From the NCBI GenBank assembly GCA_018814885.1, contig JAHIYU010000177.1, positions 40,025 to 104,024 of the forward strand: a DNA stretch of 64,000 bases, read 5' to 3'. The notes below the pieces were generated by a model. That model was not told the DNA's origin, made no database searches, and saw nothing but the letters and a program-made list of their open reading frames with translations. A program made the translations under genes and the position numbers. Numbering within the stretch: position 1 is the first letter of the stretch; the number at the start of each line of letters is the position of its first letter. Below are positions 768-23,648 of the stretch, in pieces. The stretch is from a bacterium. Its GTDB lineage: Bacteria; Krumholzibacteriota; Krumholzibacteriia; LZORAL124-64-63.

Positions 768-1263
768 TAAGCTGAGTCACATCCTCTGTCTCCTGTTGCC
801 GTTGTTGAGCGGCTGCGGCGTGTATTCGTCATCTTCCGGACGCATCGACGAGTCGATCCGCAGGGTGACGGTGCCCTATCTGGAGAACCTTACCGCCGAG
901 CCCAACATCGAGGTGGAGTTGACAGAGAACATCATCTCGGCGCTGCAGGACGACAACACGCTGCGCGTGGTGGAATTCCCCGACGCAGCCACGGAACTGA
1001 CGGGCAAGGTGGTACGCTACAACCTGCGTGAAGCCTTCACCTCCAGCAATCTCCAGGTGGACGAGTACCAGGTTCAGATCATGGTGGAACTGACCATGCG
1101 CGTGATCGAGACGGGACAAGCCTTGTTCGAGAAGAAGCGCATCACCGGCACGGGGAACTTCGCCGTCGACGAGGCCGGCGGCAGCGCCGAGGCCGACGCG
1201 CGGGCGTTGGCGGCGGCCGAGATCGTGCGCGAGGTTCTGGCTGCAGTCGTGGAGGACTGGTGA
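754..1263 (+). CDS. Small lipoprotein, LptE-like (LPS assembly) candidate
   Basis: GTG start overlaps the upstream stop. Signal peptide with lipobox LLSGC. About 170 aa, immediately upstream of holA with a 4-nt overlap, matching the conserved lptE-holA pairing. Sequence family not verifiable by eye. Confidence 0.45.
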
Positions 1264-2294
1264 TGGCGTACGGCCGCGGTAGCAGATCCGGCCCCGATTT
1301 CCAGCAGCTGCGCGACGAGCTGGCACGAGAGGCGTATCGCCCAGTTTACCTGCTGGCGGGCGAGGATGCGCATCGCATGGCCGGGGTGGTCACCTACCTG
1401 AAGAAGAAGCTGCTGGGGGAGACAGATGCGGCGTTCAACTTCCATGCGTATGACGGGGACGACGCCGAGGTGGGCAACGTCGTCCAGCAGGCCCTCAGCT
1501 ATCCAATGATGTGCAGCCACCAGGTGATCTGCGTGAAGCGCGCCGAGAAGCTGGTGACCGACGCCGGCGCCGAGGCGGGTCTGATCAAATACGTCAAGAA
1601 GCCGGCTGCCGAGACGGTATTGATACTCATGTCCGATAAAGTAGATGGCCGGCACAAATGGGTAAAAGCCTGCAAATCGGCAGGATGTTTCTTCGATTTC
1701 TCACCACCGCGCGGTCGTGATCTCGTTGGCTGGGTCATGCGCACTGCCAGCAGCCAGGGCCTGAACATGGGACAGGAACTGGCCGAACTCCTCACGGAAC
1801 TCATCGGCGACGACCTGAACGTTCTCAGCGGCGAGATCGAGAAGCTCGCGCTGATCACCGCCGATTCGAAAACGCAGCTCGATGACGGGAAATTGCTCGA
1901 GGTCATCCTGGAGCAGCGCGCCGTCGATCCTTTCGAACTGGTCAGGCTGCTGGGTCCCGGTCAAGGCGCGGCCGGATTGCGCGTGTACCATCGCTATCTC
2001 GCCGATGGACGGTCACCCTACGAGCTGGCGCCGTTGTTGATCTGGCGGGTCAAGCAGGTGGCACAGGTGGCGTCCCTGCGGCGGGAAGGAGTGGACCCAG
2101 GTCAGATGCCCGGTGTCATCGGCGCGTCGCCGTATGCAGTGAAGCAGGCCCGTGAGACTGCAGATCGGTGGGGTGACGCCGGGGTGAGAAAGGCCCTGCG
2201 GGCCTGCATGCAGTGCGAATCCGCTCTCAAGAGCAGCCCGTTGGGACCGGAGAAGGTGTTGGAGAGGGCGATTCTGGATATCTGTACGAAATGA
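1260..2294 (+). CDS. holA: DNA polymerase III delta subunit
   Basis: 344 aa with typical HolA N-terminal layout (PVYLLAGED...; LILMSDKVDGRHKWVKA). Start overlaps the upstream stop (gtgATGa). Confidence 0.8.
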   Translation: MMAYGRGSRSGPDFQQLRDELAREAYRPVYLLAGEDAHRMAGVVTYLKKKLLGETDAAFNFHAYDGDDAEVGNVVQQALSYPMMCSHQVICVKRAEKLVTDAGAEAGLIKYVKKPAAETVLILMSDKVDGRHKWVKACKSAGCFFDFSPPRGRDLVGWVMRTASSQGLNMGQELAELLTELIGDDLNVLSGEIEKLALITADSKTQLDDGKLLEVILEQRAVDPFELVRLLGPGQGAAGLRVYHRYLADGRSPYELAPLLIWRVKQVAQVASLRREGVDPGQMPGVIGASPYAVKQARETADRWGDAGVRKALRACMQCESALKSSPLGPEKVLERAILDICTK

Positions 2295-5161: not shown

Positions 5162-5239
<78 letters not shown>

Positions 5240-12491: not shown

Positions 12492-14984
12492 TTGTTACTC
12501 GATCGCGAGTATGATTGGCTCTATGGAAGGAGCGTAAGTACTAACGCCGCTTGCAAAGGTATTGCGTACCAAGTGACGAGGGGGGCTGCCATCAAATTCA
12601 TCACCTATTTCCTGATCCTGCTGGCGCTGGGACTCGGCGAACGTAGCCTAGGGCCCCACGGCACGCGACTGACCACGCTGCTGGCCCTCTGTGCTGTGCT
12701 TCCGCTCCTGTTGCGCGGTCTCTGGCTGATCGACTGGCGCATGTGGCGGGCCTCGCTCCCCGGTCTCGCCGCGATCGCGACTGCCGTCTGCTGGTACACG
12801 ACCGCGGACGCCGCGCAGTACTTCGCCCTGGGGGCGTCGCTGGCCTGCCTGTCTATCGCGGTGCGGCGCACCGTCCCCCGGGACGTCCTGGCCGACGCCT
12901 CACCGGCATCTACGGTCATCGCCTTCGCCCTTTTCGTGGCCGTCCGGGACCATCTCGACCTCTGGACCCAGCTGATCACTGCCTCCATACGGACAACGTT
13001 CTGGTTCTCGAATCTATGGGGGCAGTCGTTGCGTCTGGGGCCGACCTATTCCGGCCTCTGGCTGTTGGTCGCCTGCCTGCTGGCGCTGGTGATGATCGCC
13101 ACCGGAACGCGCCACCGGCCCTGGCGGCTGATCGCCGCCTTCGTGCTGCTGCCGCTGCTGGCCTTGGCCGCCATCCCCTTGCGCGGCCTGGTGCCGACCC
13201 ACTATCACGGCGCGCCGGCGACCGCCGTCCTCGCCTGGCGCCTGGTCCAGTTCATCCTGCTGCTGGCGCCGGTAGCTCTGCTGACCGCGACCCGCGGCCG
13301 GGACGAAGTGTTGGCGGCACAAGCCCCGCCGCACGCCGCCCCTTGGCGCGGGATCGCCACGGTTGCGTGTGCGGCCGCGGCTCTGGGCGGTCTCGTGCTG
13401 TTGAGCTGGAGCCGGCCCGTTCCTTGGCATCCCGGGCGGGTCTTGATCGACACCCGCGGGTCGTTCAACATGGAACCCTTCCGCTGGGGCGCCTACGCCC
13501 GCGATGTAGCCCAGGGCGCTTCTCTGGCCACGCTGCCACATGTGCTGGGCGCGTACGGTTTCGCGACGGCGGCATCTGACACCATGATCGACGCTGCCGC
13601 GCTGGCCGAGACAGACGTCCTGGTGGTCATGAATCCCGACACCTTCTACACCGAAGCCGAGCACGCGGCCGTCTGGGAGTTCGTCGACCGCGGAGGCGGC
13701 CTGCTGGTCCTGGGTGATCACACCAATATCATGGGTGTGATGGAGCCCTTCAACGCCCTGCTGCAGCCGGTGGGCATCGGACTGAATTTCGATTCAGTCA
13801 TTCCCAGGGTCGACCGCTGGTCTTGGTACGGCTGCATGCGTTTCCACCCCCATCCGCTGACACGGGGCCTGCGCGACGAGGCCGAGATCAAGCTCAGCGT
13901 GGGCGCCAGCCTGACGCTGGCAGCCGGGGCGATTACCTTGTTGAGCGGACGGGACGCCTACGCCGACGCCGGCAACTGGGACAACGCGCAGGGTGCCTAC
14001 CTGGGCAACATGGCCTTCGACCGGTCCGAGATCGAGGGTGATCTGCTCCTGGCTGCCGAGGCGCCCTACGGCCGGGGAAAGGTGATCGCCTTCGGGGATA
14101 CCTCGCCCTTCCAGCGCACCACCGTCAGCCTGTCGCACGAGCTGATGGCCAGGATCTTCAACTATCTCGGCACGCCCGGCGGCGCAGTGGCCGGGCGGCA
14201 GGTGCGCGGCGCCGGCGCGATACTGCTGGTCGTCGCCGGGACTCTGCTGCTGGCGCTCGGCAGGCGCCGCCCCATGGCGCCGGCGGTGTTCGCCATCCTG
14301 GCCTCGATCTGGCTGCTGGCGCTGGCAGGGCACGCGACATTCGCCCTGCCGCCGGCGCCGGTCGGCGAGAACGTGGCGTGGCTGGACCTGTCCCACGGCA
14401 ATCGTGTGGACCTGCATGCCGGCCGGGATGACGGTCTCGGCGGTCTGCAGAACCATCTGTGGCGCCACGGCTACGTGCCGCTGGCGATGCGCGCGTTCGA
14501 CCGCGACCGGCTGCTGGCCTCGGAGCTCTTCGTCACGGTGGCGCCGGCCTTCCCCTATTCTCGGCACGAGTGCGCCGCCCTGCGCGCCTTCGTCGAGAAC
14601 GGGGGCCTGCTGATCGTGTCCGCCGGCTACGAGGAGCGCAACGGTGCCGCGGACCTGCTGGCTGAATTCGGCTATGCTGTCGGTTCCACGCCCCTGGGCT
14701 CGGCGCACGTCGCCGAGACGCTGCTCACGGGACAGCGTGTCTACATGCACGAATCCTGGCCGGTGCTCCAGCCGGCCGGCCAGGGCGAGATCTGGGTCCG
14801 GTGCTGGGGGTACCCCATCGTGGTCTTCGAGACGTTCGGGGCGGGCGGTCTGCTGGTGATCGCCGATTCGATGTTCCTCAGCGAGAAGAGGCTGGAGAGC
14901 CCCGACGAATTCGTCGAGGAGAATATCGATTTCCTCCGCGCGGCGATCGAGACCGCACGGCAGCGGATGGGAGGTGAAAAGTGA
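12492..14984 (+). CDS. Large polytopic membrane protein, paralogue A (N-terminal multi-TM domain plus two repeated extracytoplasmic domains)
   Basis: 830 aa. Hydrophobic N-terminal ~300 aa, then two ~200-aa domains each with VLVV..P....E..AV..FV..GGGLLVLGDH-type motifs, separated by a TM hairpin. Clear paralogue of the next gene. Confidence 0.6.
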   Translation: MLLDREYDWLYGRSVSTNAACKGIAYQVTRGAAIKFITYFLILLALGLGERSLGPHGTRLTTLLALCAVLPLLLRGLWLIDWRMWRASLPGLAAIATAVCWYTTADAAQYFALGASLACLSIAVRRTVPRDVLADASPASTVIAFALFVAVRDHLDLWTQLITASIRTTFWFSNLWGQSLRLGPTYSGLWLLVACLLALVMIATGTRHRPWRLIAAFVLLPLLALAAIPLRGLVPTHYHGAPATAVLAWRLVQFILLLAPVALLTATRGRDEVLAAQAPPHAAPWRGIATVACAAAALGGLVLLSWSRPVPWHPGRVLIDTRGSFNMEPFRWGAYARDVAQGASLATLPHVLGAYGFATAASDTMIDAAALAETDVLVVMNPDTFYTEAEHAAVWEFVDRGGGLLVLGDHTNIMGVMEPFNALLQPVGIGLNFDSVIPRVDRWSWYGCMRFHPHPLTRGLRDEAEIKLSVGASLTLAAGAITLLSGRDAYADAGNWDNAQGAYLGNMAFDRSEIEGDLLLAAEAPYGRGKVIAFGDTSPFQRTTVSLSHELMARIFNYLGTPGGAVAGRQVRGAGAILLVVAGTLLLALGRRRPMAPAVFAILASIWLLALAGHATFALPPAPVGENVAWLDLSHGNRVDLHAGRDDGLGGLQNHLWRHGYVPLAMRAFDRDRLLASELFVTVAPAFPYSRHECAALRAFVENGGLLIVSAGYEERNGAADLLAEFGYAVGSTPLGSAHVAETLLTGQRVYMHESWPVLQPAGQGEIWVRCWGYPIVVFETFGAGGLLVIADSMFLSEKRLESPDEFVEENIDFLRAAIETARQRMGGEK

Positions 14985-17527
14985 TGCGCCGTTTCTGGCT
15001 CGCCCTCTGGCTGGCCGTTCTGGCTTGGGACGGTTTCTCCCCGCATATCGAATCCGCGGCGGCTCCCCCGCTGGCCTGGGCGGCCCTGATCGCCTGCGGC
15101 CTGCTGTTGATCTCGCGCCGGCGCGGCGACCAGCCCCTCTTCACCCGGTGGCCGTCCGTGGTGTGCGCGCTCGCCGCGTGCGGCGCCGGCTGCCTGCTGC
15201 CCTGGCCAGAAAGGGTGGGACCGCTGCTGGTCGCCGGTGGGCTGATACTCGGGCTGGTCCCCGTGCTGAACCGGTTGACCCGGGGCAACAACTGGCGGAT
15301 ACCGTCGGCCGCCGGCGGCCTGTTGTGGCTCAGCGCCGGCGTGTCACACGCTTACCGGGTATGGGAGGCGTCGTATCACGACCTGGACTTCATGGCCGGA
15401 CCGCTGGCTGCGTTTTACCGTCTGTTAGGCCTGCCGGCGGCCGCTGATCCGCCGCTGGTGCATCTGCAGGTGGTCGGCAACCTGCAGACGATCGATTGCA
15501 CCCTCGAGAAGCTGGTGGGCCATCCCCTGCCGGTGATCGTTGTGGCCGGCCTGGTCGCGATCTTCCTGCTGAACGGCCGGCGCGCCGGTTGGCGCCTGCC
15601 GTTGCTGCTGCTGTTGCTGGCGGCCGTCTACGCCTTCTTCAGGTCGGCGGCCCTGGGCCTGGCTCTCGAGCAGATGAACGAGGCCGGCATCTACTACCGG
15701 CGCATCTGGGTCTTTGGCAGCCTGCTGCCGCTGATCCTGTTGCTGACGTGGGTTGTGCCGCCGCTGCGGCATGAACGGGGCGCCGACCTTGCACCGGCAG
15801 GGCGCGTGTCGGTCGCCGCCACCGGACGCGGATGGACGGATCCGCTGCTGGCGGTCCTGCTGGGTGTCGGCCTGGCCGGTGCCCTCGGCTTCTACGATCC
15901 TGGCGATCCCAAGCCCGGCCGTGTGATGATCGACGAGAACCATTCCAACTGGGAGTGGTCGACCGTCGCGTTGAACACCGAGAGCTACGGCGTGCAGACC
16001 GTCTACAACTACTCCGAACTGGTGCGCTACCTGCGCCACTTTTACGCGGTGGACCAGAACTTCGCGGTGCTCGGCGACAGCCTGCTCGCGGCTGTGGACG
16101 TGTTGATTCTCAAGACGCCGACCAAACCCTATGCGGACGCGGAAGTGGACGCCGTCGTGCGCTTCGTCGAGCGGGGCGGCGGCCTCTGGCTGGTGGGCGA
16201 TCACACCAACGTCTTCGGCATGAGCACGAACCTGAACAGGGTGGGCCGGCATTTCGGCATGACCTACAACTACGACGCGGTCATAGACCTGCTGACCTAC
16301 GGTCGGCAGTACTACCGGCACCCGCGTCTGTTCGCCCACCCCTCGCTGCGCCACCTGCCGCCACTCTTGCTGGCCACTTCCTCCAGCATGGTCGGCCCGC
16401 TGCTCAGCCAGCCGGTCATGATCGGCCGTACCCTGCTCTCGGACCAGCTTGACTACTCCGTCAACGCGTTCTTCGGGGATTTCCGGCCGAGCGCCGGCGA
16501 ATCCTTCGGCGCGATGCTGCAATCCGTGGCCGTGCCCCGCGGCCGCGGTCGCGTGCTGGGCTTCAGCGACAGCACCATCTTCTCGAACTTCTTCATGTTC
16601 ATCCGCGGCAAGCCGGAGCTGGCCCTGGGCAGCGTGGCCTGGCTGATGTCGACCAACCGGTTCGGCTGGGTGCGTCACGCCCTGCTGGCGATGGCGGGGA
16701 TCGGCGCGCTGCTGCTTCTGGTGCGGTTGCCGCGACAGCACGGCGCGGCGCCCTTCGTCCTGCAGATGATCCTGGCCACTCTCTTCTTTGCCCTGACCGC
16801 GCGGGCGCTCGATCGCTGGACCGCGGCATGGTCCACGCTGCCGCGGCCGCACACTCCCCTGCCCACGGTGGCCTTCGACCGCGGCAAGACCGACTACGAC
16901 ATCCCGGACATCCGGGAGGTCGCCGATGAATCGCCCGCCAGCTTCCACACCTTCTACGTGTGGACCCAGCGTACGGGCTGGATCCCGACCACCGGGCTCT
17001 TCGAGGACTGCCTGGCCGCTGCGCGGGCGACCGTGCTGATCAGGCCCAGCGGCCACTACCATGCCACCGAACTGGCGGAACTGGAGGACCACGTGAGGCA
17101 GGGTGGCGGTCTGCTGGTGCTGGACTCGCCGCACAGCCGCCACTCGGCGGCGCAGTCGATCCTGCAGGCGTTCGGCATGGGCTTCAGCCCCGCGGAGATG
17201 GAGAGCGTCACGGTCAGCCCCGCCGCCGGCGGCCTCGAGACGACCGAACTGCACCACGTGCGCGGCGTGACCGGCGGCCGGCCGGTCCTGGTCGCGTCCG
17301 ACGGCACCGCCGTGCTCGCGTACACGGACTTCGGCCGCGGCAGGGTAGTGGCGATGTGCGCCGCGGACAACTTCACCGACGCGGTGATGGGTACCACCTC
17401 GGCCGTCCCCACGCCGGAGCAGCTGGCGCTCTATCGGATCGAGTACCTTATCTTCGAGGAACTGCTGGATACCGCTGGGGCCTGGCCCGCCCGCGACGGG
17501 GAACCGCCGGCAGGAGGTGGCGGCTAG
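14981..17527 (+). CDS. Large polytopic membrane protein, paralogue B (same architecture as 12492-14984)
   Basis: 848 aa, GTG/ATG start overlapping the upstream stop (GTGATG). Motifs VDVLILKTP...AEVDAVVRFVERGGGLWLVGDHTN and ATVLIRPSGHYHATELAELEDHVRQGGGLLVLDSP. Confidence 0.6.
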   Translation: MMRRFWLALWLAVLAWDGFSPHIESAAAPPLAWAALIACGLLLISRRRGDQPLFTRWPSVVCALAACGAGCLLPWPERVGPLLVAGGLILGLVPVLNRLTRGNNWRIPSAAGGLLWLSAGVSHAYRVWEASYHDLDFMAGPLAAFYRLLGLPAAADPPLVHLQVVGNLQTIDCTLEKLVGHPLPVIVVAGLVAIFLLNGRRAGWRLPLLLLLLAAVYAFFRSAALGLALEQMNEAGIYYRRIWVFGSLLPLILLLTWVVPPLRHERGADLAPAGRVSVAATGRGWTDPLLAVLLGVGLAGALGFYDPGDPKPGRVMIDENHSNWEWSTVALNTESYGVQTVYNYSELVRYLRHFYAVDQNFAVLGDSLLAAVDVLILKTPTKPYADAEVDAVVRFVERGGGLWLVGDHTNVFGMSTNLNRVGRHFGMTYNYDAVIDLLTYGRQYYRHPRLFAHPSLRHLPPLLLATSSSMVGPLLSQPVMIGRTLLSDQLDYSVNAFFGDFRPSAGESFGAMLQSVAVPRGRGRVLGFSDSTIFSNFFMFIRGKPELALGSVAWLMSTNRFGWVRHALLAMAGIGALLLLVRLPRQHGAAPFVLQMILATLFFALTARALDRWTAAWSTLPRPHTPLPTVAFDRGKTDYDIPDIREVADESPASFHTFYVWTQRTGWIPTTGLFEDCLAAARATVLIRPSGHYHATELAELEDHVRQGGGLLVLDSPHSRHSAAQSILQAFGMGFSPAEMESVTVSPAAGGLETTELHHVRGVTGGRPVLVASDGTAVLAYTDFGRGRVVAMCAADNFTDAVMGTTSAVPTPEQLALYRIEYLIFEELLDTAGAWPARDGEPPAGGGG

Positions 17528-18552
17528 TCTGCGTCGTGGCTCCGCAGCCAATCCCGCCACAGGACGAGTACGCTGTCCGGCACCTCCGGCAGGGGATCCC
17601 CGCGCCAGAGGCGCGCCCCCGCCTGCGCTTCCTCTTCCGGAAGCAGATGCTGCCCCTCGCGATCTAGGAACCGCGGCCGGCGGCGGATGTTGCCGTCGGT
17701 CCCCACGTAATCGGAGCAGACGCCGCCGGCGGCCCCGCCCTCGTTCTCCCAGACCTGGTTGCCGCGGAAGGTGGCGGGCGCGTCGTCGTCCAGCTGGAAG
17801 ACGGCGCTCTCGCCGCGGTTGTAGGCCAGGACGTTCTCCACGATCAGGGCCGGCGAGGAATCGCAGTAGATGCCGCCGCCCCCGCTGCTGGCGGCGTTGC
17901 CGACGATCGTGTTGGCGTAGATGACCGGGCAGGAGTTGAGGGCCAGGATCCCGCCGCCGCTGACGGCGCTGTTGTCGAAGATCAGGTTGTTGTAGACCAG
18001 CGGCGCACAGTCCTGGTAGGCGGAGATCGCCCCCCCCAGATAGCCTTCGTTGTCGCGGAAGACGTTGAAGGCGATCACCGGGCGGCAATCGTAGTTCGTG
18101 TAGACGCCCGGACCCAGGTAGCCCAGGTGGTCGCGGAAGACGTTGTTGATGATCAGCGGGCTGCTGCGGTGCAGGTAGATGCCGCCGCCGCCCGAGTTGG
18201 CATGGGGCCGGCGGCCGTTCTGGAGGGTGAGGCCGGCGATCGTGGTCGTGGAATCGATGCCGCGGCCGAAGAGGCAATAGCGATCGCCGGCGGCGTCGAT
18301 GATCGTCGAATCGGGCCCCGCGATACCGATCAGCGAGACGCCTGAACGCAGGGTGAAGCTGCCCCGGTAGGTGCCCGGGTTCAGCAGCAGGGTATCTCCC
18401 GGTGCGGCGGACTGCAGCCGTGCGGCCAGACCCTGGACGGAATCGGCCGGAGACGGGAACGTGTCGATCCGGGCGGCGGCGGCGGGACCGCCTGTCAGTC
18501 CGCAGGCGAGGCCCACGGCGAGAAACATCAGGATCGCGGCGCGGCGCGGCAT
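17524..18552 (-). CDS. Secreted right-handed parallel beta-helix (PbH1 / NosD-like) repeat protein
   Basis: Signal peptide (MPRRAAILMFLAVGLACGLTGGPAAAA). Repeated PbH1-like units (GGGGIYLHRSSPLIINNVF, GGAISAYQDCAPLVYNNLIF, GGGILALNSCPVIYANTIV, GGGGIYCDSSPALIVENVL). Start at 18552 (ATG). Confidence 0.7.
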   Translation of the reverse strand: MPRRAAILMFLAVGLACGLTGGPAAAARIDTFPSPADSVQGLAARLQSAAPGDTLLLNPGTYRGSFTLRSGVSLIGIAGPDSTIIDAAGDRYCLFGRGIDSTTTIAGLTLQNGRRPHANSGGGGIYLHRSSPLIINNVFRDHLGYLGPGVYTNYDCRPVIAFNVFRDNEGYLGGAISAYQDCAPLVYNNLIFDNSAVSGGGILALNSCPVIYANTIVGNAASSGGGGIYCDSSPALIVENVLAYNRGESAVFQLDDDAPATFRGNQVWENEGGAAGGVCSDYVGTDGNIRRRPRFLDREGQHLLPEEEAQAGARLWRGDPLPEVPDSVLVLWRDWLRSHDAD

Positions 18553-18637
18553 GCGACTCCCTCGCTGCTCGCGAAGGTGCCGGGGACCGGAGCCCCCGGC
18601 ACCTCGTGTTTGATCCGTTCTCCGCGGGGAGAGCGGA

Positions 18638-19609
18638 CTACTTGCGGTACTGGGTCTTGACTTCACCCCAGCTGCAATCGTCGTTGCTGACCTCGCAGGT
18701 CGGACCGATCGTACATGCGATACCATCGGTACAACCCGTAGTGCCGCTCGTGCACACGGTCGCTGCGGTGCAAGCGCCGGCTGCCGACGTACAGCTCTGG
18801 CCACCCGTACAGGTCGGACCGAACGTACAGGCATTGGCTGCGGAGGTGCAGTTGATGCCGGCCGTACAGCCGGTCGCGTCGAAGGTGCAGGCGTTGCCTC
18901 CGGTACAGCCGGGACCCGCGGTGCAGGTGCCGTCGGCGGAGGTACACGCCGTACCCAGAGTACAGGCGTCGGGACCGGTCGTGCAGTTCAGGCCACCGGT
19001 ACACTGCGTGCCGATGGTACAGGCGTTCGACCCGAAGGTGCAGTTCTCACCGAGCGTACAGTTGGTACAGTCGGTGCAGACATCCCACGTGCAACGCACG
19101 CCGGCCGTGCATGCGGCAGGCCCGAACGTACAGTTGGCACCCAGCGTGCACCAGGCGCCGGACGTACAGGTCTCGCCGGCCGTGCACCCGGAGATGCTGG
19201 TGCAGGTTCCACCGACCGTGCAACCGGAGCCCTGGGTACAGGATTCCGCGCCGGTGCACAGAGGCGTCTGTGTGCAGTCGAGTGCCGCCGTACATGTCTG
19301 GGCCGTACAGAGAGAACCCTGCGTACACCCTTCCTCTTGTGTGCAGAGTGCTGTCCCCCCACTGGTTGTTTCGTCGAACTTGTCGGGGTTGCCGGCGACG
19401 GTTTCCGCGGCGATGGCCGCGTCACCCACCCGCCAGACTTTCTGCTGCATCCCGTTTGCAGACAGGTCGGAGATGTGCTTGTACAAGGGCGATTCAACAT
19501 CAACCTCTCCTGCGATCCCCCGGGCGAATGCCGGCGTCGATCCCAGGACGACGGCGAGCACCAGCACGGTGCAAGCCATCAATAGCATTTTCTTCATCAT
19601 GATTATCAC
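18638..19609 (-). CDS. Secreted Cys-Thr hexapeptide-repeat protein (about 38 tandem CTxGxx units)
   Basis: Sec signal peptide. Good Shine-Dalgarno (AAGGGGGTG) 8 nt upstream of the ATG. Residues ~89-312 are built from C-T-x-[GAS]-x-x repeats. Ends ...CEVSNDDCSWGEVKTQYRK. Confidence 0.7.
   Translation of the reverse strand: MIIMMKKMLLMACTVLVLAVVLGSTPAFARGIAGEVDVESPLYKHISDLSANGMQQKVWRVGDAAIAAETVAGNPDKFDETTSGGTALCTQEEGCTQGSLCTAQTCTAALDCTQTPLCTGAESCTQGSGCTVGGTCTSISGCTAGETCTSGAWCTLGANCTFGPAACTAGVRCTWDVCTDCTNCTLGENCTFGSNACTIGTQCTGGLNCTTGPDACTLGTACTSADGTCTAGPGCTGGNACTFDATGCTAGINCTSAANACTFGPTCTGGQSCTSAAGACTAATVCTSGTTGCTDGIACTIGPTCEVSNDDCSWGEVKTQYRK
18676..19345. repeat. Coding tandem repeat, 18-nt (6-codon) period, about 37 copies
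   Basis: tgc-acN-NNN-ggN/gcN-NNN-NNN periodicity visible on the minus strand. The complementary strand yields the artefactual VQ-rich ORF 18402..19622. Confidence 0.8.
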
Positions 19610-19994
19610 CCCCCTTCAATAGATGCTGTTGTGGCGATCGCCCGCGAAGAGCGCCGCTGAGGCGGACCACAACATTCGTGCAGGGGAAAAGCCTAGCATA
19701 TCGGCGCACAGAATTTTCAAGAATCATGTGGGCAGTGGCTCTGCTTCTGTATGTAAATTCACCGGGGGTAAAAAATGACTTCTGCCTTCTGGAATTTGAC
19801 AGTCGCAATACCGATCTTCTTAACCTAACTTGTCGCGTGTTCAACCACTTGAGGACTCTTGACCAAGGGAGAATGACAGATCAACGTGGAACGGGGATAC
19901 GGATCGATCGAGCCGGAATCACCGCGAATCCCACCGGGAAGTTGAGGGGATGCCACGTAGGAGGGTGACCCGGAGGTGAATCGAGAAACTGCGG
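19610..19994 (-). promoter_or_regulatory. AT-rich upstream/leader region of the CT-repeat operon
   Basis: About 385 nt non-coding, with GC well below local average. Candidate -35/-10 (TTGAAA...TATGCT) about 60 nt upstream of the ATG. The remainder may be a leader or small RNA. Confidence 0.35.
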
Positions 19995-20028
19995 CGGGAA
20001 AAAGGAATCGGGCCACCGTCGGGCAACC
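19995..20028 (-). terminator. Intrinsic terminator downstream of tRNA-Pro(GGG)
   Basis: Minus-strand RNA folds GGGUUGCC-CGA-GGUGGCCC (G-C and G-U pairs), followed by GAUUCCUUUUUCCC. Confidence 0.4.
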
Positions 20029-20050
20029 CGTTTCAAGACTTGTGGTTCTC

Positions 20051-20127
<77 letters not shown>

Positions 20128-20214
20128 ACCGAGATGTCCCAGCACGGGCGATAACCCGCGCGGTTCGACAATCTAATACGCTCCCGTCGGCATCACAAGC
20201 GCGGAATGGTCTGG

Positions 20215-20601
20215 TCACTCCCCCTTGGCCTTCATCTCCTTGAGGAGATCCATGACCTCCTTCAGCTCGCGTCTGAGGTGGGCGATCCGCTTGCCGCGGT
20301 TCTGACCCTCGAAGAGCGATTCCTGCGGTTGTTCCTGTTCCTTGGCCGCGGCGCCGCGCTTGTGTTCGCGCAGGTGCTTGCGGGCGCCCTCGATGCGGTA
20401 GCCTTCCTCCTGCAACAGACTGCGGATCGTCAGGATCTCGTCGATATCCTTCTTGCGGTAGTTGCGCGCGCCGGAGCGGGCCCGCTTGGGCTTCAGGGTG
20501 GGGAACTCGCTCTCCCAGTAGCGTAGGACGTGCGGTTCCACGCCGGTATGCTCGGCGACTTCGCGTATGGAGTAGTAGAGCTTGTCGGGTAGTTCCGCCA
20601 C
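20215..20601 (-). CDS. MerR-family transcriptional regulator
   Basis: N-terminal MerR HTH (YSIREVAEHTGVEPHVLRYWESEF) plus C-terminal coiled-coil/basic tail. 128 aa. Confidence 0.75.
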   Translation of the reverse strand: MAELPDKLYYSIREVAEHTGVEPHVLRYWESEFPTLKPKRARSGARNYRKKDIDEILTIRSLLQEEGYRIEGARKHLREHKRGAAAKEQEQPQESLFEGQNRGKRIAHLRRELKEVMDLLKEMKAKGE

Positions 20602-20628
20602 GGGTCCTCTCCCATCAATCGACGATTC

Positions 20629-21642
20629 TCATTCGTGCTCCGAACGCAGGGCCCGTTCCATGAGATCCTGCATCGCCTTGGACGGAGCCTTGCCGGAGAA
20701 TAGCACATCGTGAACTTCTTGGGTAATGGGAAGTTCGATCGAGTGCTTCGCACTCAACTTCAAGGCTGCCTGCGTCATGACGGCTCCCTCGACCACCTGG
20801 CAGGCCTGTTTCAGGATGGATTGGGGGTCCTGCGCCGCACGCGCGACTGCCTCTCCGTAGTTGCGGTTGCGCGAATGGCGGCTCGTGCAGGTCGTGATCA
20901 TGTCGCCGATGCCCGACAAGCCGTAGAAGGTCTCGAACTGGCCGCCCAGGGCGATGCCCAGCCGGGCCAGTTCCTTCAGTCCCCTGGTCATGACGGCGCC
21001 GCGTGTGTTGTCGCCGTAACCCAGCCCGTCGGCCATGCCGACCGCGATGGCGATGACGTTCTTGAAGGCGGCGGCGATCTCGACCCCGACCAGATCGCGG
21101 TTGGTGTAGACCCGCACCGTCGGACCGCTCAGGTGCTGTTGCCAGTCGTGCCAGCTCTCGCCGCGTCCCGACAGGACCAGGGCCGTCGGCAGGCGCAGGA
21201 CGACCTCCTCGGCGTGGCTGGGGCCCAGCAGCACGCCTATGCGATGGGGATGGCCCGCGGCGTCGTGGAGCAGCTCCTCCTCCATCACCGTGCTCAGGCG
21301 CTTCAGAGTGCTCAGTTCCAGCCCCTTGCTCAGACAGATGACCGGCACTTCGGCCTTGAGGCGGCAGTCGCGCAGGGCGTGGGCCACGCCGCGCACGGTC
21401 TGACTCGGCAGGATGAAGAAGACGGCGTCGGCCCCGCCGACGGCTTCCTGCAGGTCCAGGGTGGCTGTCATGTTGGCGGGCAGGATCAGATCGGGAAAGA
21501 AGGCCGGATTGGTGTGCGTGTCCCGGATGGCCGAGATCTGGTCGGCCTCGATGCCCCAGAGCACCACGTCCCGCCACGACTCGGCGAGATGGCGACCGAA
21601 GGCCGTGCCCCAGCTGCCGGATCCCAGGATCGCTGCGCGCAT
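20629..21642 (-). CDS. gpsA: NAD(P)H-dependent glycerol-3-phosphate dehydrogenase
   Basis: MRAAILGSGSWGTAF Rossmann start. GpsA core conserved through ...TTCTSRHSRNRNYG. Start taken at internal ATG (21642). The upstream in-frame extension looks spurious. Confidence 0.9.
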   Translation of the reverse strand: MRAAILGSGSWGTAFGRHLAESWRDVVLWGIEADQISAIRDTHTNPAFFPDLILPANMTATLDLQEAVGGADAVFFILPSQTVRGVAHALRDCRLKAEVPVICLSKGLELSTLKRLSTVMEEELLHDAAGHPHRIGVLLGPSHAEEVVLRLPTALVLSGRGESWHDWQQHLSGPTVRVYTNRDLVGVEIAAAFKNVIAIAVGMADGLGYGDNTRGAVMTRGLKELARLGIALGGQFETFYGLSGIGDMITTCTSRHSRNRNYGEAVARAAQDPQSILKQACQVVEGAVMTQAALKLSAKHSIELPITQEVHDVLFSGKAPSKAMQDLMERALRSEHE

Positions 21643-21659
21643 TGTCCAGCCTTTCGCCG

Positions 21660-22334
21660 CTAGCCGGTCGTCCTGTCGTCCAGGCCGTTGGACTCGAGGG
21701 GTTTCTCCGTCCCCGCCTGCAGGCGCTTGATGTTGGTGCGGTGCTTGACCAGGACCCAGAGGCAGATGACAAGCGTGAACACGAAGATGGTCTTGGAGAA
21801 CTGCTCCGAACGCAACTCGAAATAGCCCACGGCGATGGGCAGCACGATGGCGGCGACGATGCTGCCCAGGGATACGATCCGGGTGATCGCCATCATGATC
21901 GCGAAGGCGCCCAGGGCGACGAGCGTGGGGTAAGGCGCCAGCACGAAGAAGGCGCCGCTGGTGGTCGCCACGCCCTTGCCGCCGTGGAAGCCCACGAACG
22001 GCGACAAGGTGTGGCCCAGGGCCGCCACGAAACCGGCGAAGATGCGCCACAGGTCGGGCGGCAGGTGCAAAGGTGTGGGCTGTCCCCCGGGCCAGGTCGC
22101 GGTCACCGCCGTCATGGCCAGCACGGCGACGGCGCCCTTGGCCATGTCCAGCAGCAGCACCAGCAGGCCCCACCAGGGGCCCAGGGTGCGGAAGACGTTG
22201 GTGGCGCCGAGATTGCCGCTACCATGCTCGCGCAGGTCGATGCCCCGCAGACGCTTGGCGACTATGAAGCTGAACGGTATGGCGCCGAGCAGGTAGGAGA
22301 GCAGAAGAACGAGTATCAGCAGCATGTGATGCAC
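21660..22334 (-). CDS. plsY: Glycerol-3-phosphate acyltransferase PlsY
   Basis: GSGNLGATNVFR and FHGGKGVAT motifs. About 5 TM helices. gpsA-plsY adjacency. Confidence 0.85.
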   Translation of the reverse strand: MHHMLLILVLLLSYLLGAIPFSFIVAKRLRGIDLREHGSGNLGATNVFRTLGPWWGLLVLLLDMAKGAVAVLAMTAVTATWPGGQPTPLHLPPDLWRIFAGFVAALGHTLSPFVGFHGGKGVATTSGAFFVLAPYPTLVALGAFAIMMAITRIVSLGSIVAAIVLPIAVGYFELRSEQFSKTIFVFTLVICLWVLVKHRTNIKRLQAGTEKPLESNGLDDRTTG

Positions 22335-22337
22335 CTC

Positions 22338-23648
22338 TCAATGCTTCTTGAGCTTCACGAAGATGCGACTTCCCTCGAAACCGAATCGCGCGCGTATCTT
22401 GTTGTTGATGAACCTCACGAAGCTGCGGTCGAACCACTGGGGATTGTTGACCGAGAGCATGAACACCGGTGGTGCCGTGTCGATCTGCGTCGCGTAGTAG
22501 ACCTTGCCCGTGCCGCCGCCGTGGAAGCGCGGGGGCTGCTTGTGGATCACGCCCTCCAGGTAGGCGTTGAGCACGCTGGTCTCGACCCTGCGCAGGCGCG
22601 CCTCGTGCACGGCCCAGACCGTTTCCAGGACACGCCCGCTGCGCTGGTGCGTGTGCGCCGACAGGGTGAACCACGGAGCGTAGGTCAGGAACGGGACCTC
22701 GCGGCAGAACGTCTCCCAGACCCCAAGATGCGTATTGTGGTCCTTCTCCACCAGGTCCCACTTGTTGAAGGCCACCACCACGCCCTTGCCGCTGTCGTGT
22801 ATCAGGCCGGCGATCTTGGCGTCCTGGCTGACGGTCCCGTCGCTGGCGTCCACCATCAGCACGGCCACGTCGCACTGTTCCAGGGCGAGAAATGTGCGCA
22901 TGTTGCTGAAGGCCTCGACGGCTTCCTGGACGCGCGACTTGCGGCGAAGGCCCGCCGTGTCGATCAAGCGCAGGGTGCGGCCATGCCAGCGCAGGTCGGT
23001 GTGGATGGCGTCGCGGGTAGTGCCCGCTATTTCGCTGACCAGGGCGTCCTGTCGGCCGGTGAGCAGGTTGAGCAGGCTCGACTTGCCCACGTTCGGACGG
23101 CCGAGGATCGCCACGCGAGAGTCGCAGGGGGCCTCGACGGTCTGCTTGGGGAAGTCCGCCGCGACCCGGTCGAGAAGGTCGCCGATGCCGTGGCCATGCA
23201 GGGCGCTGATGACGTGGGGCTCCCCCAGGCCGAGGGAGTAGAACTCCGCCGCGCTGAGACGCTGATGCTCCTTCTCCACCTTGTTCACGCAGAGGACCAC
23301 GGGCTTGCCGCTGCGTCGAAGATGCTGGGCGATGGCGTCGTCCCAGCTGGAAAGGCCGCCCGAGCCGTCGACCATGAAGAGCACCACGTCGGCCTCTTCG
23401 ATGGCGTCGTGGGCCACCTCTGTCACCAGGGCGTCGAAGCGCGAGACCTCGTCGCCGAAGGGAACGATGCCGCCGGTGTCCAGCAGCAGGAAGGCATGGC
23501 CGGCCCAGTCGGTCAACTCGGCGATGCGGTCGCGCGTCACGCCCGGTGTCTCGTGGACGACCGAGCGGCGCTGACCGATGATGCGGTTGAACAGCGTCGA
23601 CTTGCCCACGTTGGGGCGGCCGACGATCACCACCGTCCTGGTCGACAC
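22338..23648 (-). CDS. der: Ribosome-biogenesis GTPase Der (EngA), tandem GTP-binding domains
   Basis: Two G domains (GRPNVGKSTLFN and GRPNVGKSSLLN) plus a KH-like C-terminus. Confidence 0.9.
   Translation of the reverse strand: MSTRTVVIVGRPNVGKSTLFNRIIGQRRSVVHETPGVTRDRIAELTDWAGHAFLLLDTGGIVPFGDEVSRFDALVTEVAHDAIEEADVVLFMVDGSGGLSSWDDAIAQHLRRSGKPVVLCVNKVEKEHQRLSAAEFYSLGLGEPHVISALHGHGIGDLLDRVAADFPKQTVEAPCDSRVAILGRPNVGKSSLLNLLTGRQDALVSEIAGTTRDAIHTDLRWHGRTLRLIDTAGLRRKSRVQEAVEAFSNMRTFLALEQCDVAVLMVDASDGTVSQDAKIAGLIHDSGKGVVVAFNKWDLVEKDHNTHLGVWETFCREVPFLTYAPWFTLSAHTHQRSGRVLETVWAVHEARLRRVETSVLNAYLEGVIHKQPPRFHGGGTGKVYYATQIDTAPPVFMLSVNNPQWFDRSFVRFINNKIRARFGFEGSRIFVKLKKH

Follow-up and report, generated by a model that had tools for sequence, protein, structure and literature searches.

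Several described systems resemble parts of the locus analyzed here, a cluster built around a cysteine-threonine (CT) repeat protein gene in a 64,000-nucleotide stretch of a Krumholzibacteriota contig (GenBank JAHIYU010000177.1, positions 40,025 to 104,024). This whole stretch is referred to as the window. TmAFP, the antifreeze protein of the beetle Tenebrio molitor (PDB 1EZG, thermal hysteresis protein YL-1), shares with the CT protein its CT dipeptides and a Cys at every sixth residue. It is also secreted, rich in small residues in its repeats, and contains an irregular cluster of short-spaced Cys resembling the central CTDCTNCT of the CT protein. The Dicty_CTDC proteins of Dictyostelium (PF00526), which occur in extracellular matrix and spore coats, share extracellular Cys-periodic repeats containing CT. 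NosD of the NosDFY complex (TIGR04247, PF05048) is a periplasmic or secreted right-handed beta-helix encoded beside membrane proteins, as is the second protein of the cluster, PbH1. Intercistronic hairpins set the stoichiometry of major subunit and accessory proteins in the pufBA-hairpin-LMX operon of Rhodobacter and in the papA and fimA operons. GldG belongs to the GldA-GldF-GldG gliding transporter and has the same GIFT, DUF4350 and ABC_transp_aux domains as the two membrane proteins of the cluster, GIFT1 and GIFT2. Archaeal DUF4350 (arCOG01314) is predicted to be a component of a secretion or membrane-remodelling complex (PMC5898192).

The CT and PbH1 genes appear to form half of a conserved four-gene module, whose architecture is well supported and which would act in the cell envelope. 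The other half is the GIFT1–GIFT2 pair on the opposite strand. The four genes of the window are as follows.

12492 to 14984, plus strand: GIFT1, a GldG-like polytopic membrane protein of 830 amino acids with Pfam domains DUF4350, IFT52_GIFT and ABC_transp_aux
14981 to 17527, plus strand: GIFT2, a GldG-like polytopic membrane protein of 848 amino acids with the same Pfam domains as GIFT1
17524 to 18552, minus strand: PbH1, a secreted right-handed parallel beta-helix protein of 342 amino acids, Pfam Beta_helix
18638 to 19600, minus strand: the CT-repeat protein gene, an open reading frame of 320 amino acids with the stop included in the coordinates

Related loci (numbered L) were sampled from PbH1 orthologues of 48–70% identity in a metagenome scan and from CT homologues (numbered P); a genome scan with a 4-sequence CT alignment contributed 3 loci. 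In all seven loci with enough flanking sequence (L004, L005, L012, L013, L016, L017, and L018), CT lies next to PbH1 on the same strand. CT precedes PbH1 in five of them and follows it in two. The adjacency survives this swap in order, which argues for a functional linkage between the two genes. Two short contigs lack CT upstream of PbH1, and both end just past PbH1. In every locus that extends far enough, two large paralogous GIFT genes converge on the CT–PbH1 pair. Two distant CT loci, L006 and L008 (proteins P0006 and P0008), lack PbH1 and encode an unrelated protein of 660–803 residues instead. There the CT genes are followed, in the same direction, by the same two membrane-protein genes. 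Since the GIFT pair is kept without PbH1, PbH1 would be a lineage-specific accessory, and CT and the membrane pair would be the core.

A reading of the window made earlier from its sequence alone (the sequence-only reading) had proposed a functional pair of secreted proteins. The pairing is indeed conserved across related genomes, adjacent in all seven informative loci in either order. A unit of two genes is too small, however, because the two GIFT genes are always linked, even to CT-family genes without PbH1. The suggestion of an enzyme with its substrate finds no support, as PbH1 looks non-catalytic.

The CT protein is sequentially composed of a signal peptide, a short N-terminal motif, a long repeat region, and a C-terminal tag.

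19523 to 19600, minus strand: Sec-type signal peptide, MMKKMLLMACTVLVLAVVLGSTPAFA ahead of RG, read from the translation
19448 to 19492, minus strand: N-terminal motif SPLYKHISDLSANGM, residues 37–51, defined by family conservation
18698 to 19345, minus strand: Cys-Thr repeat region, residues 86–301, 36 units, defined by the Cys-spacing pattern
18641 to 18673, minus strand: C-terminal tag SWGEVKTQYRK, consensus [ST]W[GS]x[IV]Kxx[YF][RK][DK]

The sequence-only reading placed this gene at 19609 to 18638. The minus-strand frame and the stop at 18638 are confirmed, but the ATG at 19600 is a likelier start than the GTG at 19609, since a GGGGGGTG Shine–Dalgarno sequence ends 7 nucleotides before the ATG. 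The 320-residue product is called in three public records of the same DNA. Read from the sequence, the CT protein and PbH1 both have Sec-type N-termini, ending AFA/R and AAA/R respectively, in agreement with the signal peptide noted before. The AFA/R end is kept in CT orthologues, and CT homologues of 37–59% identity carry a Shine–Dalgarno sequence and a signal peptide. The open reading frames, Shine–Dalgarno sequences, and AxA signal peptides are kept across 7 orthologues.

Residues H42, L46, S47, G50, and M51 of the N-terminal motif are invariant or nearly so throughout the family, and an AlphaFold2 model places a helix at residues 38–48 with low confidence. In a profile search of the PDB, residues 34–51 (19448–19501, minus strand), (d)SPLYKHIsDLS, aligned with residues 112–144 of yeast enolase, dvPLYKHLADLS, at an E value of about 1. 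The likeness is probably due to chance.

The mature protein contains 36 CT units and 38 Cys. Cys content is 12%, in a regular array. Most units are CTxGxx hexads, with 7-, 5-, and 3-residue units interspersed, and 24 of the 37 Cys spacings are six. No tandem repeat was detected in the gene at the DNA level. Its Cys codons are balanced (19 TGT to 20 TGC, versus 5 to 41 in neighboring genes), and its third-position GC content is 0.75 versus 0.85–0.90 in the neighbors. The balanced Cys codons and the lack of a DNA repeat fit selection against DNA repetitiveness or a relaxed codon bias. An antisense open reading frame (18402–19622, plus strand), stop-free over 406 codons and encoding ‘VQ’ repeats, is a mirror of the TGY-ACN codons. 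It was rejected because the minus-strand product has a Shine–Dalgarno sequence, a signal peptide, conserved non-repeat motifs, and homologues. Comparable antisense or alternative-frame open reading frames are present in most related loci and may mislead gene callers.

The C-terminal tag lies at the extreme C-terminus of all close CT orthologues. In L016, two unrelated secreted-looking open reading frames (1–816 and 820–1434, plus strand), located just upstream of PbH1, terminate in SWGTIKALYR and SWGGIKALFR. The [ST]WGxIKxx[YF]R element appears to be a C-terminal tag for sorting or recognition that is common to the lineage.

Nine relatives of the CT protein were found among 5.8 billion proteins, and a family profile gave 125 matches at E<1e-10 among 1.84 billion representatives. 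The members have in common a signal peptide, an SPL[YF]xH[IV]xxLSxxGM motif, CT repeats, and a C-terminal element. Some contain an additional spacer domain between the motif and the repeats. The C-terminal element takes the form of a hydrophobic helix ending in a basic tail, a type IX secretion system (T9SS) sorting domain (P0004), or, in the clade of the window protein, the terminal tag. No Pfam or NCBIfam model matched the window protein or the ten family members scanned, and the family, of which at least about 25 cluster representatives were examined, is without such a model; literature searches returned nothing on it. The closest database homologue, P0001 (L004:5782–7092), has a CHRD domain as its spacer between motif and repeats. 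The genes flanking its locus encode SCO1/SenC, cytochrome c, and cytochrome c oxidase. In a Gemmatimonadales metagenome-assembled genome (MAG; L005/L009:852–2271), the CT gene is frameshifted near locus position 1510, and tblastn covers its full length across two frames. Either the repeat was misassembled or the gene is a pseudogene.

The seven CT orthologues, at 42–59% identity, all have 36 units, apart from one with 39, and they share one irregular Cys spacing, 665666666666765336766767667... The constancy of unit number and spacing, with no repeat in the DNA and an even split of Cys codons, argues for a defined fold and against slippage or low complexity. The CT protein thus appears to have a defined fold under long-term selection. 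A phmmer search of the CT protein against the PDB gave nothing meaningful. The sole PDB match of the family profile is TmAFP (E=2.2e-4), and the Cys stay in register along the whole of its 84 residues. The bacterial transferase hexapeptide model, a left-handed beta-helix (PF00132), scores 13.8 bits (E=0.047), below its 27-bit gathering score, and 3 of the 10 CT members scanned show such sub-threshold matches.

GIFT1 and GIFT2 are paralogues, and at the junction the stop of GIFT1 overlaps the start of GIFT2. Both contain IFT52_GIFT and DUF4350 domains above the Pfam gathering score, with a GATase1-like fold, and the 100% NCBI match of the GIFT protein is named ‘GldG family protein’. The AlphaFold2 model of GIFT2, computed with 56 homologues, has a mean predicted local distance difference test score (pLDDT) of 92 and a predicted template modeling score (pTM) of 0.92. 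In this model, roughly nine membrane helices and a small beta-sheet make up the N-terminal part; a GIFT domain comes next, and two further helices separate it from a second, GIFT-like domain. The GIFT domain matches the folds of IFT52, OST48, and ThuA. The N-terminal membrane domain, about 300 residues long, gave no structural match. The first GIFT domain contains a set of invariant polar residues: E319, H321, S322, E388, D407, H408, T409, N410, D530, S531, and T532.

PbH1 had been recognized before as a beta-helix protein encoded from 18552 to 17524, and this holds: the 342-residue product matches Pfam Beta_helix (PF13229) over residues 102–267 with an E value of 7.9e-14 and 52 bits versus a gathering score of 25.9. 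It also scores 26.9 bits with Pfam NosD and, over the whole protein, 23.8 bits with Chlam_PMP (PF02415) versus a cutoff of 20.6, which no single stretch passes alone. Its sequence contains Pmp-like motifs (GGGGI, GGAI, and GGGIL; NNVF, FNVF, and NNLIF). The 100% database match is annotated ‘right-handed parallel beta-helix repeat-containing protein’, and about 55 orthologues are 49–86% identical. No sequence match to PbH1 was found in the PDB. PbH1 looks like a non-catalytic Pmp-type beta-helix with GGxI/FxxN repeats.

The stop codons of PbH1 (minus strand) and GIFT2 (plus strand) overlap at 17524–17527 in the palindrome CTAG. Terminators therefore have no space between the two convergent units, and the convergent transcripts would overlap. 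The 4-nucleotide overlap recurs in L005, and the other loci have gaps of 70–90 nucleotides. In L013 (759–3203), a single frame of 814 codons without a stop spans both PbH1 and CT, although CT keeps its own Shine–Dalgarno sequence, ATG, and signal peptide. The shared frame probably arose by chance in GC-rich DNA, with a fusion product as the lesser candidate.

The interval between the CT stop and the PbH1 start is 85 nucleotides, as reported previously, and folds with a z score of −5.4. It contains three elements.

18615 to 18636, minus strand: weak imperfect inverted repeat, −14.2 kcal/mol
18575 to 18604, minus strand: strong GC hairpin, core GCCGGGGG / CCCCCGGC with a UCCG loop, −31.5 kcal/mol
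18557 to 18563, minus strand: PbH1 Shine–Dalgarno sequence GAGGGAG, read from the sequence, ending 4 nucleotides before the ATG

The weak repeat is the one that the sequence-only reading had flagged as an attenuator. It is at chance level, as 12.6% of 36-nucleotide windows across the 64 kb fold as well. The attenuator idea survives for the neighboring hairpin at 18575–18604, which is conserved and attached to the CT 3′ end. This hairpin, overlooked in the sequence-only reading and about 13–14 base pairs long, is the most stable of 42,644 windows of 36 nucleotides in the 64 kb on both strands. The motif CCGGGG-N(4–12)-CCCCGG is present in one copy in the window and one copy in each of seven distinct related loci with a CT 3′ end. 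An eighth locus, L018, has the variant CCGGAGG/CCUCCGG. The motif always lies 30–50 nucleotides past the CT stop. It follows CT both where PbH1 comes next (the window, L004, L005, L012, L017, and L018) and where CT is the last gene (L013 and L016). The hairpin therefore belongs to the CT 3′ end and not to the CT–PbH1 junction.

Eight distinct versions of the hairpin were aligned, with 500 shuffles and a slid pairing as controls. The alignment forms a 13-base-pair helix with 89% of cells paired, versus 36–60% when the pairing is slid. Compensatory changes, including those of L018, are found at 7 of the 13 pairs, and none of the 500 shuffles reached the observed values. UNCG or GNRA tetraloops cap the helix in most loci (the window, L004, L005, L012, and L017). 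The hairpin tails of relatives read UUUCG or UUCUUC.

The hairpin ends 22 nucleotides before the PbH1 ATG, and this segment also holds GAGGGAG, so there is no room for a separate PbH1 promoter downstream of the hairpin. The two genes lie on the same strand across a short gap, with no internal promoter site found and with conserved adjacency. Co-transcription of CT and PbH1, which had been proposed, is thus likely from the arrangement. The short distance from hairpin to ATG would make PbH1 dependent on read-through, and we infer that the hairpin is a leaky terminator and/or a 3′ stabilizer belonging to the CT gene.

Upstream of CT, a low-GC spacer separates the cluster from a tRNA gene.

19601 to 20050, minus strand: low-GC non-coding spacer of 450 nucleotides, GC 0.53 with dips to 0.40–0.46, versus 0.67 for the window
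20051 to 20127 and 20009 to 20030, minus strand: tRNA-Pro(GGG) and a terminator-like hairpin, bounding the spacer upstream and co-directional with CT

About 385 nucleotides of AT-rich DNA had been noted here. The low GC content is confirmed, but the spacer is 450 nucleotides long, and 385 corresponds to the spacer minus the tRNA terminator. A local GC dip is also seen in several related loci. The fold of the spacer is not significant (z=+0.73), and an alignment of the spacers of eight loci contains no conserved block. Rfam searches of the gap and spacer, at gathering scores and at E≤1, returned only tRNAs and sub-threshold noise. Unless transcripts continue into the spacer from the tRNA gene, it must contain the CT promoter. 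A long transcribed leader, as named in the sequence-only reading, is so far a conjecture.

A second tRNA-Pro gene (CGG) is located at 5162–5239 on the minus strand and shares at least 32 identical bases from the 3′ end with the gene at 20051–20127 (GGG, minus strand). A genomic island was considered and rejected for lack of an att site, since the tRNA-Pro sequence is repeated nowhere but in this second gene. Immediately upstream of tRNA-Pro(GGG) lies a gene for a MerR-family regulator, part of a der-plsY-gpsA-MerR housekeeping block (20215–23648, minus strand). The MerR gene is probably not the regulator of the cluster, because it is not kept beside CT in other loci.

These elements can be combined into a composite, which we hold with middling confidence: a Cys-braced rod with a beta-helix accessory, produced from a leaky-terminator operon and acting with the membrane pair in a function that we infer. 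The CT protein, with its signal peptide, SPLYxHIxxLSxxGM helix motif, 36 Cys-Thr units of fixed spacing, and WGxIKxxYR tag, would be exported by the Sec route. Its repeat region would most likely form a narrow Cys-braced solenoid-like rod of the TmAFP type, with Cys every six residues, two hexads per coil, about 18 coils, and Thr pointing outward. PbH1 would be a secreted, probably non-catalytic, Pmp-like partner or adaptor specific to the lineage. A promoter in the low-GC spacer, on the downstream side of tRNA-Pro, would drive both genes. The hairpin 3′ of CT, judged from its anatomy and conservation, would act as the leaky terminator or stabilizer, so that CT mRNA outnumbers the read-through CT–PbH1 mRNA. 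In each GIFT protein, a polytopic membrane domain at the N-terminus would be followed by two GIFT/GATase1-like domains in the periplasm. The conserved neighborhood shows a link between the pair and the exported products, with which it would work; as a platform in the inner membrane, it may anchor, assemble, or process the repeat protein.

Besides the absence of PbH1 from L006 and L008, several observations weigh against this composite. The AlphaFold2 model of the CT protein, from a 10-sequence alignment, has a pLDDT of 43 and is unusable, so the solenoid fold is not proven. The match to 1EZG is weak and biased in composition (23.6 bits, bias 61.8). Mature Cys counts are odd as well as even across 25 members (38 in the window protein), as counted with approximate signal-peptide and tail boundaries; this mixed parity does not support all Cys being in intramolecular disulfides. 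The tail of the hairpin on the coding strand is UUCGCG, which is not a canonical U-tract, and a terminator scan scored the hairpin only on the plus, opposite strand. A sigma-70 scan of 17000–20700 found no promoter-like site. No gene for an ABC ATPase or permease (GldA, GldF) was found in 6–32 kb of the window, so a GldAFG-like transporter is not reconstituted. Finally, one of the distant GIFT2 relatives described below (L026) has no Cys-repeat neighbor.

The linkage of GIFT genes to periodic Cys-Thr proteins extends beyond the CT family. Among seven distant GIFT2 relatives, selected only for long contigs, five gave strict matches, one a weak match, and one none.

L027, 5943 to 7202, Pirellulales MAG: secreted protein with 57 CPxxETR heptads, directly before the GIFT pair
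L028, 3369 to 5879, Verrucomicrobiae MAG: secreted protein with 97 CPxxETR heptads, directly before the GIFT pair
L029, 2208 to 5018, metagenome contig: 936-residue protein of STCDGx hexads, two genes upstream
L032, 2439 to 6671, minus strand, metagenome contig: 1410-residue protein with 104 CxTNPxYxPx decapeptides, about 1.4 kb upstream on the opposite strand, with one called gene of 312 residues between
L030, 12889 to 14484, metagenome contig: protein that begins with TCNT/TCAGNY repeats, immediately following the GIFT pair
L031, metagenome contig: small open reading frame of TTCAPx repeats, 3 kb away
L026, Zixibacteria MAG: single GIFT gene, no Cys-repeat neighbor

Over the 424 kb scanned, each open reading frame with at least 12 Cys at a dominant spacing either adjoins a GIFT pair, in loci that reach it, or is an alternative frame of such a gene. 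Among the GIFT-pair loci the repeat period is 4, 6, 7, or 10, but Cys and Thr invariably stay close. In several of these Cys-Thr types the repeats come after an SPL[FYD] motif. Three of the proteins (L027, L028, and L029) were scanned with Pfam, and none has a match to its repeat region. An identity of the heptad proteins as YTV or planctomycete cell-wall proteins was considered and rejected for want of a Pfam match. The combination was found in MAGs of Gemmatimonadales, Pirellulales (Planctomycetota), and Verrucomicrobiae, in a truncated Krumholzibacteriia MAG fragment, and in unclassified metagenome contigs. We tentatively suggest, with less confidence than for the composite, that a GIFT pair and a dedicated secreted periodic Cys-Thr protein form an undescribed envelope system in which the Cys-Thr dyad, rather than one fold, is the functional unit. 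The dyad would then be, for example, a periplasmic cross-linking or modification site or an ordered surface chemistry, and the CT–PbH1 pair of the window would be the version of one lineage.

The main rival to the composite would be that the Cys-Thr dyads are sites of post-translational modification (Thr O-glycosylation, S- or O-linked cross-links, or attachment of lipid or sugar), with the GIFT pair as the periplasmic machinery and the repeat protein as its dedicated substrate instead of a passive rod. This would explain better why the dyad outlives changes in period: the period and motif vary among GIFT-pair loci while Cys and Thr stay close, as if the dyad and not one fold were selected. 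The many invariant polar residues in the first GIFT domain and the occurrence of GIFT domains in the OST48/Wbp1 subunits of oligosaccharyltransferase also point this way, and the mixed Cys parity fits Cys that are not simply paired in disulfides. However, the cluster has no conserved enzyme of the glycosyltransferase, radical-SAM, YcaO, or lanthipeptide type, and the GIFT/GATase1-like domains of IFT52, OST48, and GH42 are non-catalytic scaffolds. There is also no evident energy source for a periplasmic modification, and the kept Cys-spacing pattern argues for a fold. We therefore regard modification as unlikely, if the strongest of the alternatives.

A quite improbable alternative to the leaky-terminator operon is that CT and PbH1 are transcribed independently, the hairpin being a full terminator of CT and the PbH1 promoter lying inside the end of the CT gene. 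The hairpin does follow CT even where CT is the last gene (L013 and L016), behaving as a 3′ element of CT itself, and the gap in L018, of about 195 nucleotides, has room for a promoter. In the window, by contrast, just 22 nucleotides separate the hairpin from the ATG, the U-tract is weak, and the scan of 17000–20700 contains no promoter-like site. Same-strand adjacency in 7 of 7 informative loci, in two of them with the order reversed, likewise speaks for the operon.

The Cys could instead be free thiols that bind soft metals or serve as carriers of sulfur or redox equivalents; the protein would then act as a thiol buffer or metal sponge in the periplasm or on the surface. A content of 12% Cys in a regular array would suit such a role, as would odd and even Cys counts family-wide, a MerR-family regulator 0.6 kb upstream, and the SCO1/SenC and cytochrome c oxidase genes flanking the L004 homologue. 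The MerR gene is nevertheless cut off from CT by the tRNA and the terminator-like hairpin, belongs to the plsY-gpsA-MerR block, and is not conserved beside CT. The protein also lacks the CxxC, CxC, or His-rich motifs typical of metal sites, and disulfides normally form in a protein exported to the oxidizing periplasm. This role is thus very improbable.

Least credible of all is an ice-binding (antifreeze or ice-adhesion) protein of the TmAFP type in a cold-adaptation module: TmAFP, aligned with its Cys in register, is the sole solved match of the profile, PF02420 is listed in a precomputed annotation of the homologue P0003, and many Thr of the repeats are potentially exposed, but T-C-T occurs in only 5 of 36 units (0–9 in relatives), giving at most a single Thr rank per face, PF02420 is reached by no family member in a direct scan at E≤1, the heptad and decapeptide relatives resemble no antifreeze protein, and linkage to a membrane pair is not seen with known antifreeze proteins. 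The lack of the TCT ice-binding motif likewise weakens the hint of cold tolerance in the sequence-only reading.

The composite remains our preferred reading. GIFT/DUF4350 proteins are unexplained even in the gliding-motility system in which GldG was named, and the invariable linkage of CT to a GldG-like pair is a first genomic handle on the function of bacterial members. The occurrence of distant relatives of the pair beside differing periodic Cys-Thr proteins suggests a general relationship of substrate and machine. The kept Cys spacing in the CT family implies a precise fold. A disulfide-braced solenoid of 18 coils, if true, would be of interest for the design of beta-solenoid scaffolds and antifreeze mimics.

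Comparison with the known systems reveals a distinct difference in each case. TmAFP alternates TCTxSx with CxxAxx in a 12-residue unit, TCT being the ice-binding face, whereas every hexad of the CT protein is CTxGxx, with TCT in 5 of 36 units and in 0–9 units of 24 relatives. In addition, the CT protein is four times longer, has 7-residue units interleaved, an N-terminal motif, and a C-terminal tag, is bacterial, and is linked to membrane proteins. The insect antifreeze repeat model (PF02420) did not match the window protein at E≤0.1 or 10 family members at E≤1; its annotation on the homologue P0003 exists only as a precomputed entry. As far as sequence goes, then, the CT protein resembles TmAFP in its Cys register but fails the defining tests of TmAFP, namely the Pfam model and the TCT motif.

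Many giant proteins matched by the CT profile through their repeats are Dicty_CTDC proteins, and these match PF00526. Dicty_CTDC repeats, however, have a 24-residue unit and come without the N-terminal motif and without linkage to a GIFT pair. PF00526 gave no match at E≤1 in the ten CT members scanned, including the window protein. The likeness of CT to Dicty_CTDC holds at the profile level only.

The N-terminal 90 residues of PbH1 resemble NosD (E=4.7e-11). PbH1 differs from NosD in reaching only 41.9 bits with TIGR04247, versus a cutoff of 300, and in its Pmp GGxI/FxxN repeats. Near PbH1 there is no nosZ, nosF, nosY, or nosL gene; around it lie the genes of the GIFT proteins, an epimerase-like gene, and one for a histidine kinase. 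PbH1 thus belongs to the right-handed beta-helix superfamily as an ordinary member and is not NosD.

Neither window protein of the membrane pair reaches TIGR03521, the GldG model. Unlike GldG, GIFT1 and GIFT2 have a polytopic N-terminal domain and two GIFT-like domains each, and occur as a paralogous pair. The membrane pair contains GIFT domains but is not GldG.

The CT hairpin is like those of the puf, papA, and fimA operons in being very stable, in lying right after the gene of a presumably abundant product, and in being followed by the Shine–Dalgarno sequence of the next gene. In contrast to what is usual for plain terminators, its core sequence (CCGGGGG) is itself conserved. No description of the module was found in the literature searched on GIFT/DUF4350, GldG, cysteine-rich repeats, and beta-solenoids. 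The whole is without a described counterpart in the curated libraries or the literature searched, while each of its parts is a variant of something known.

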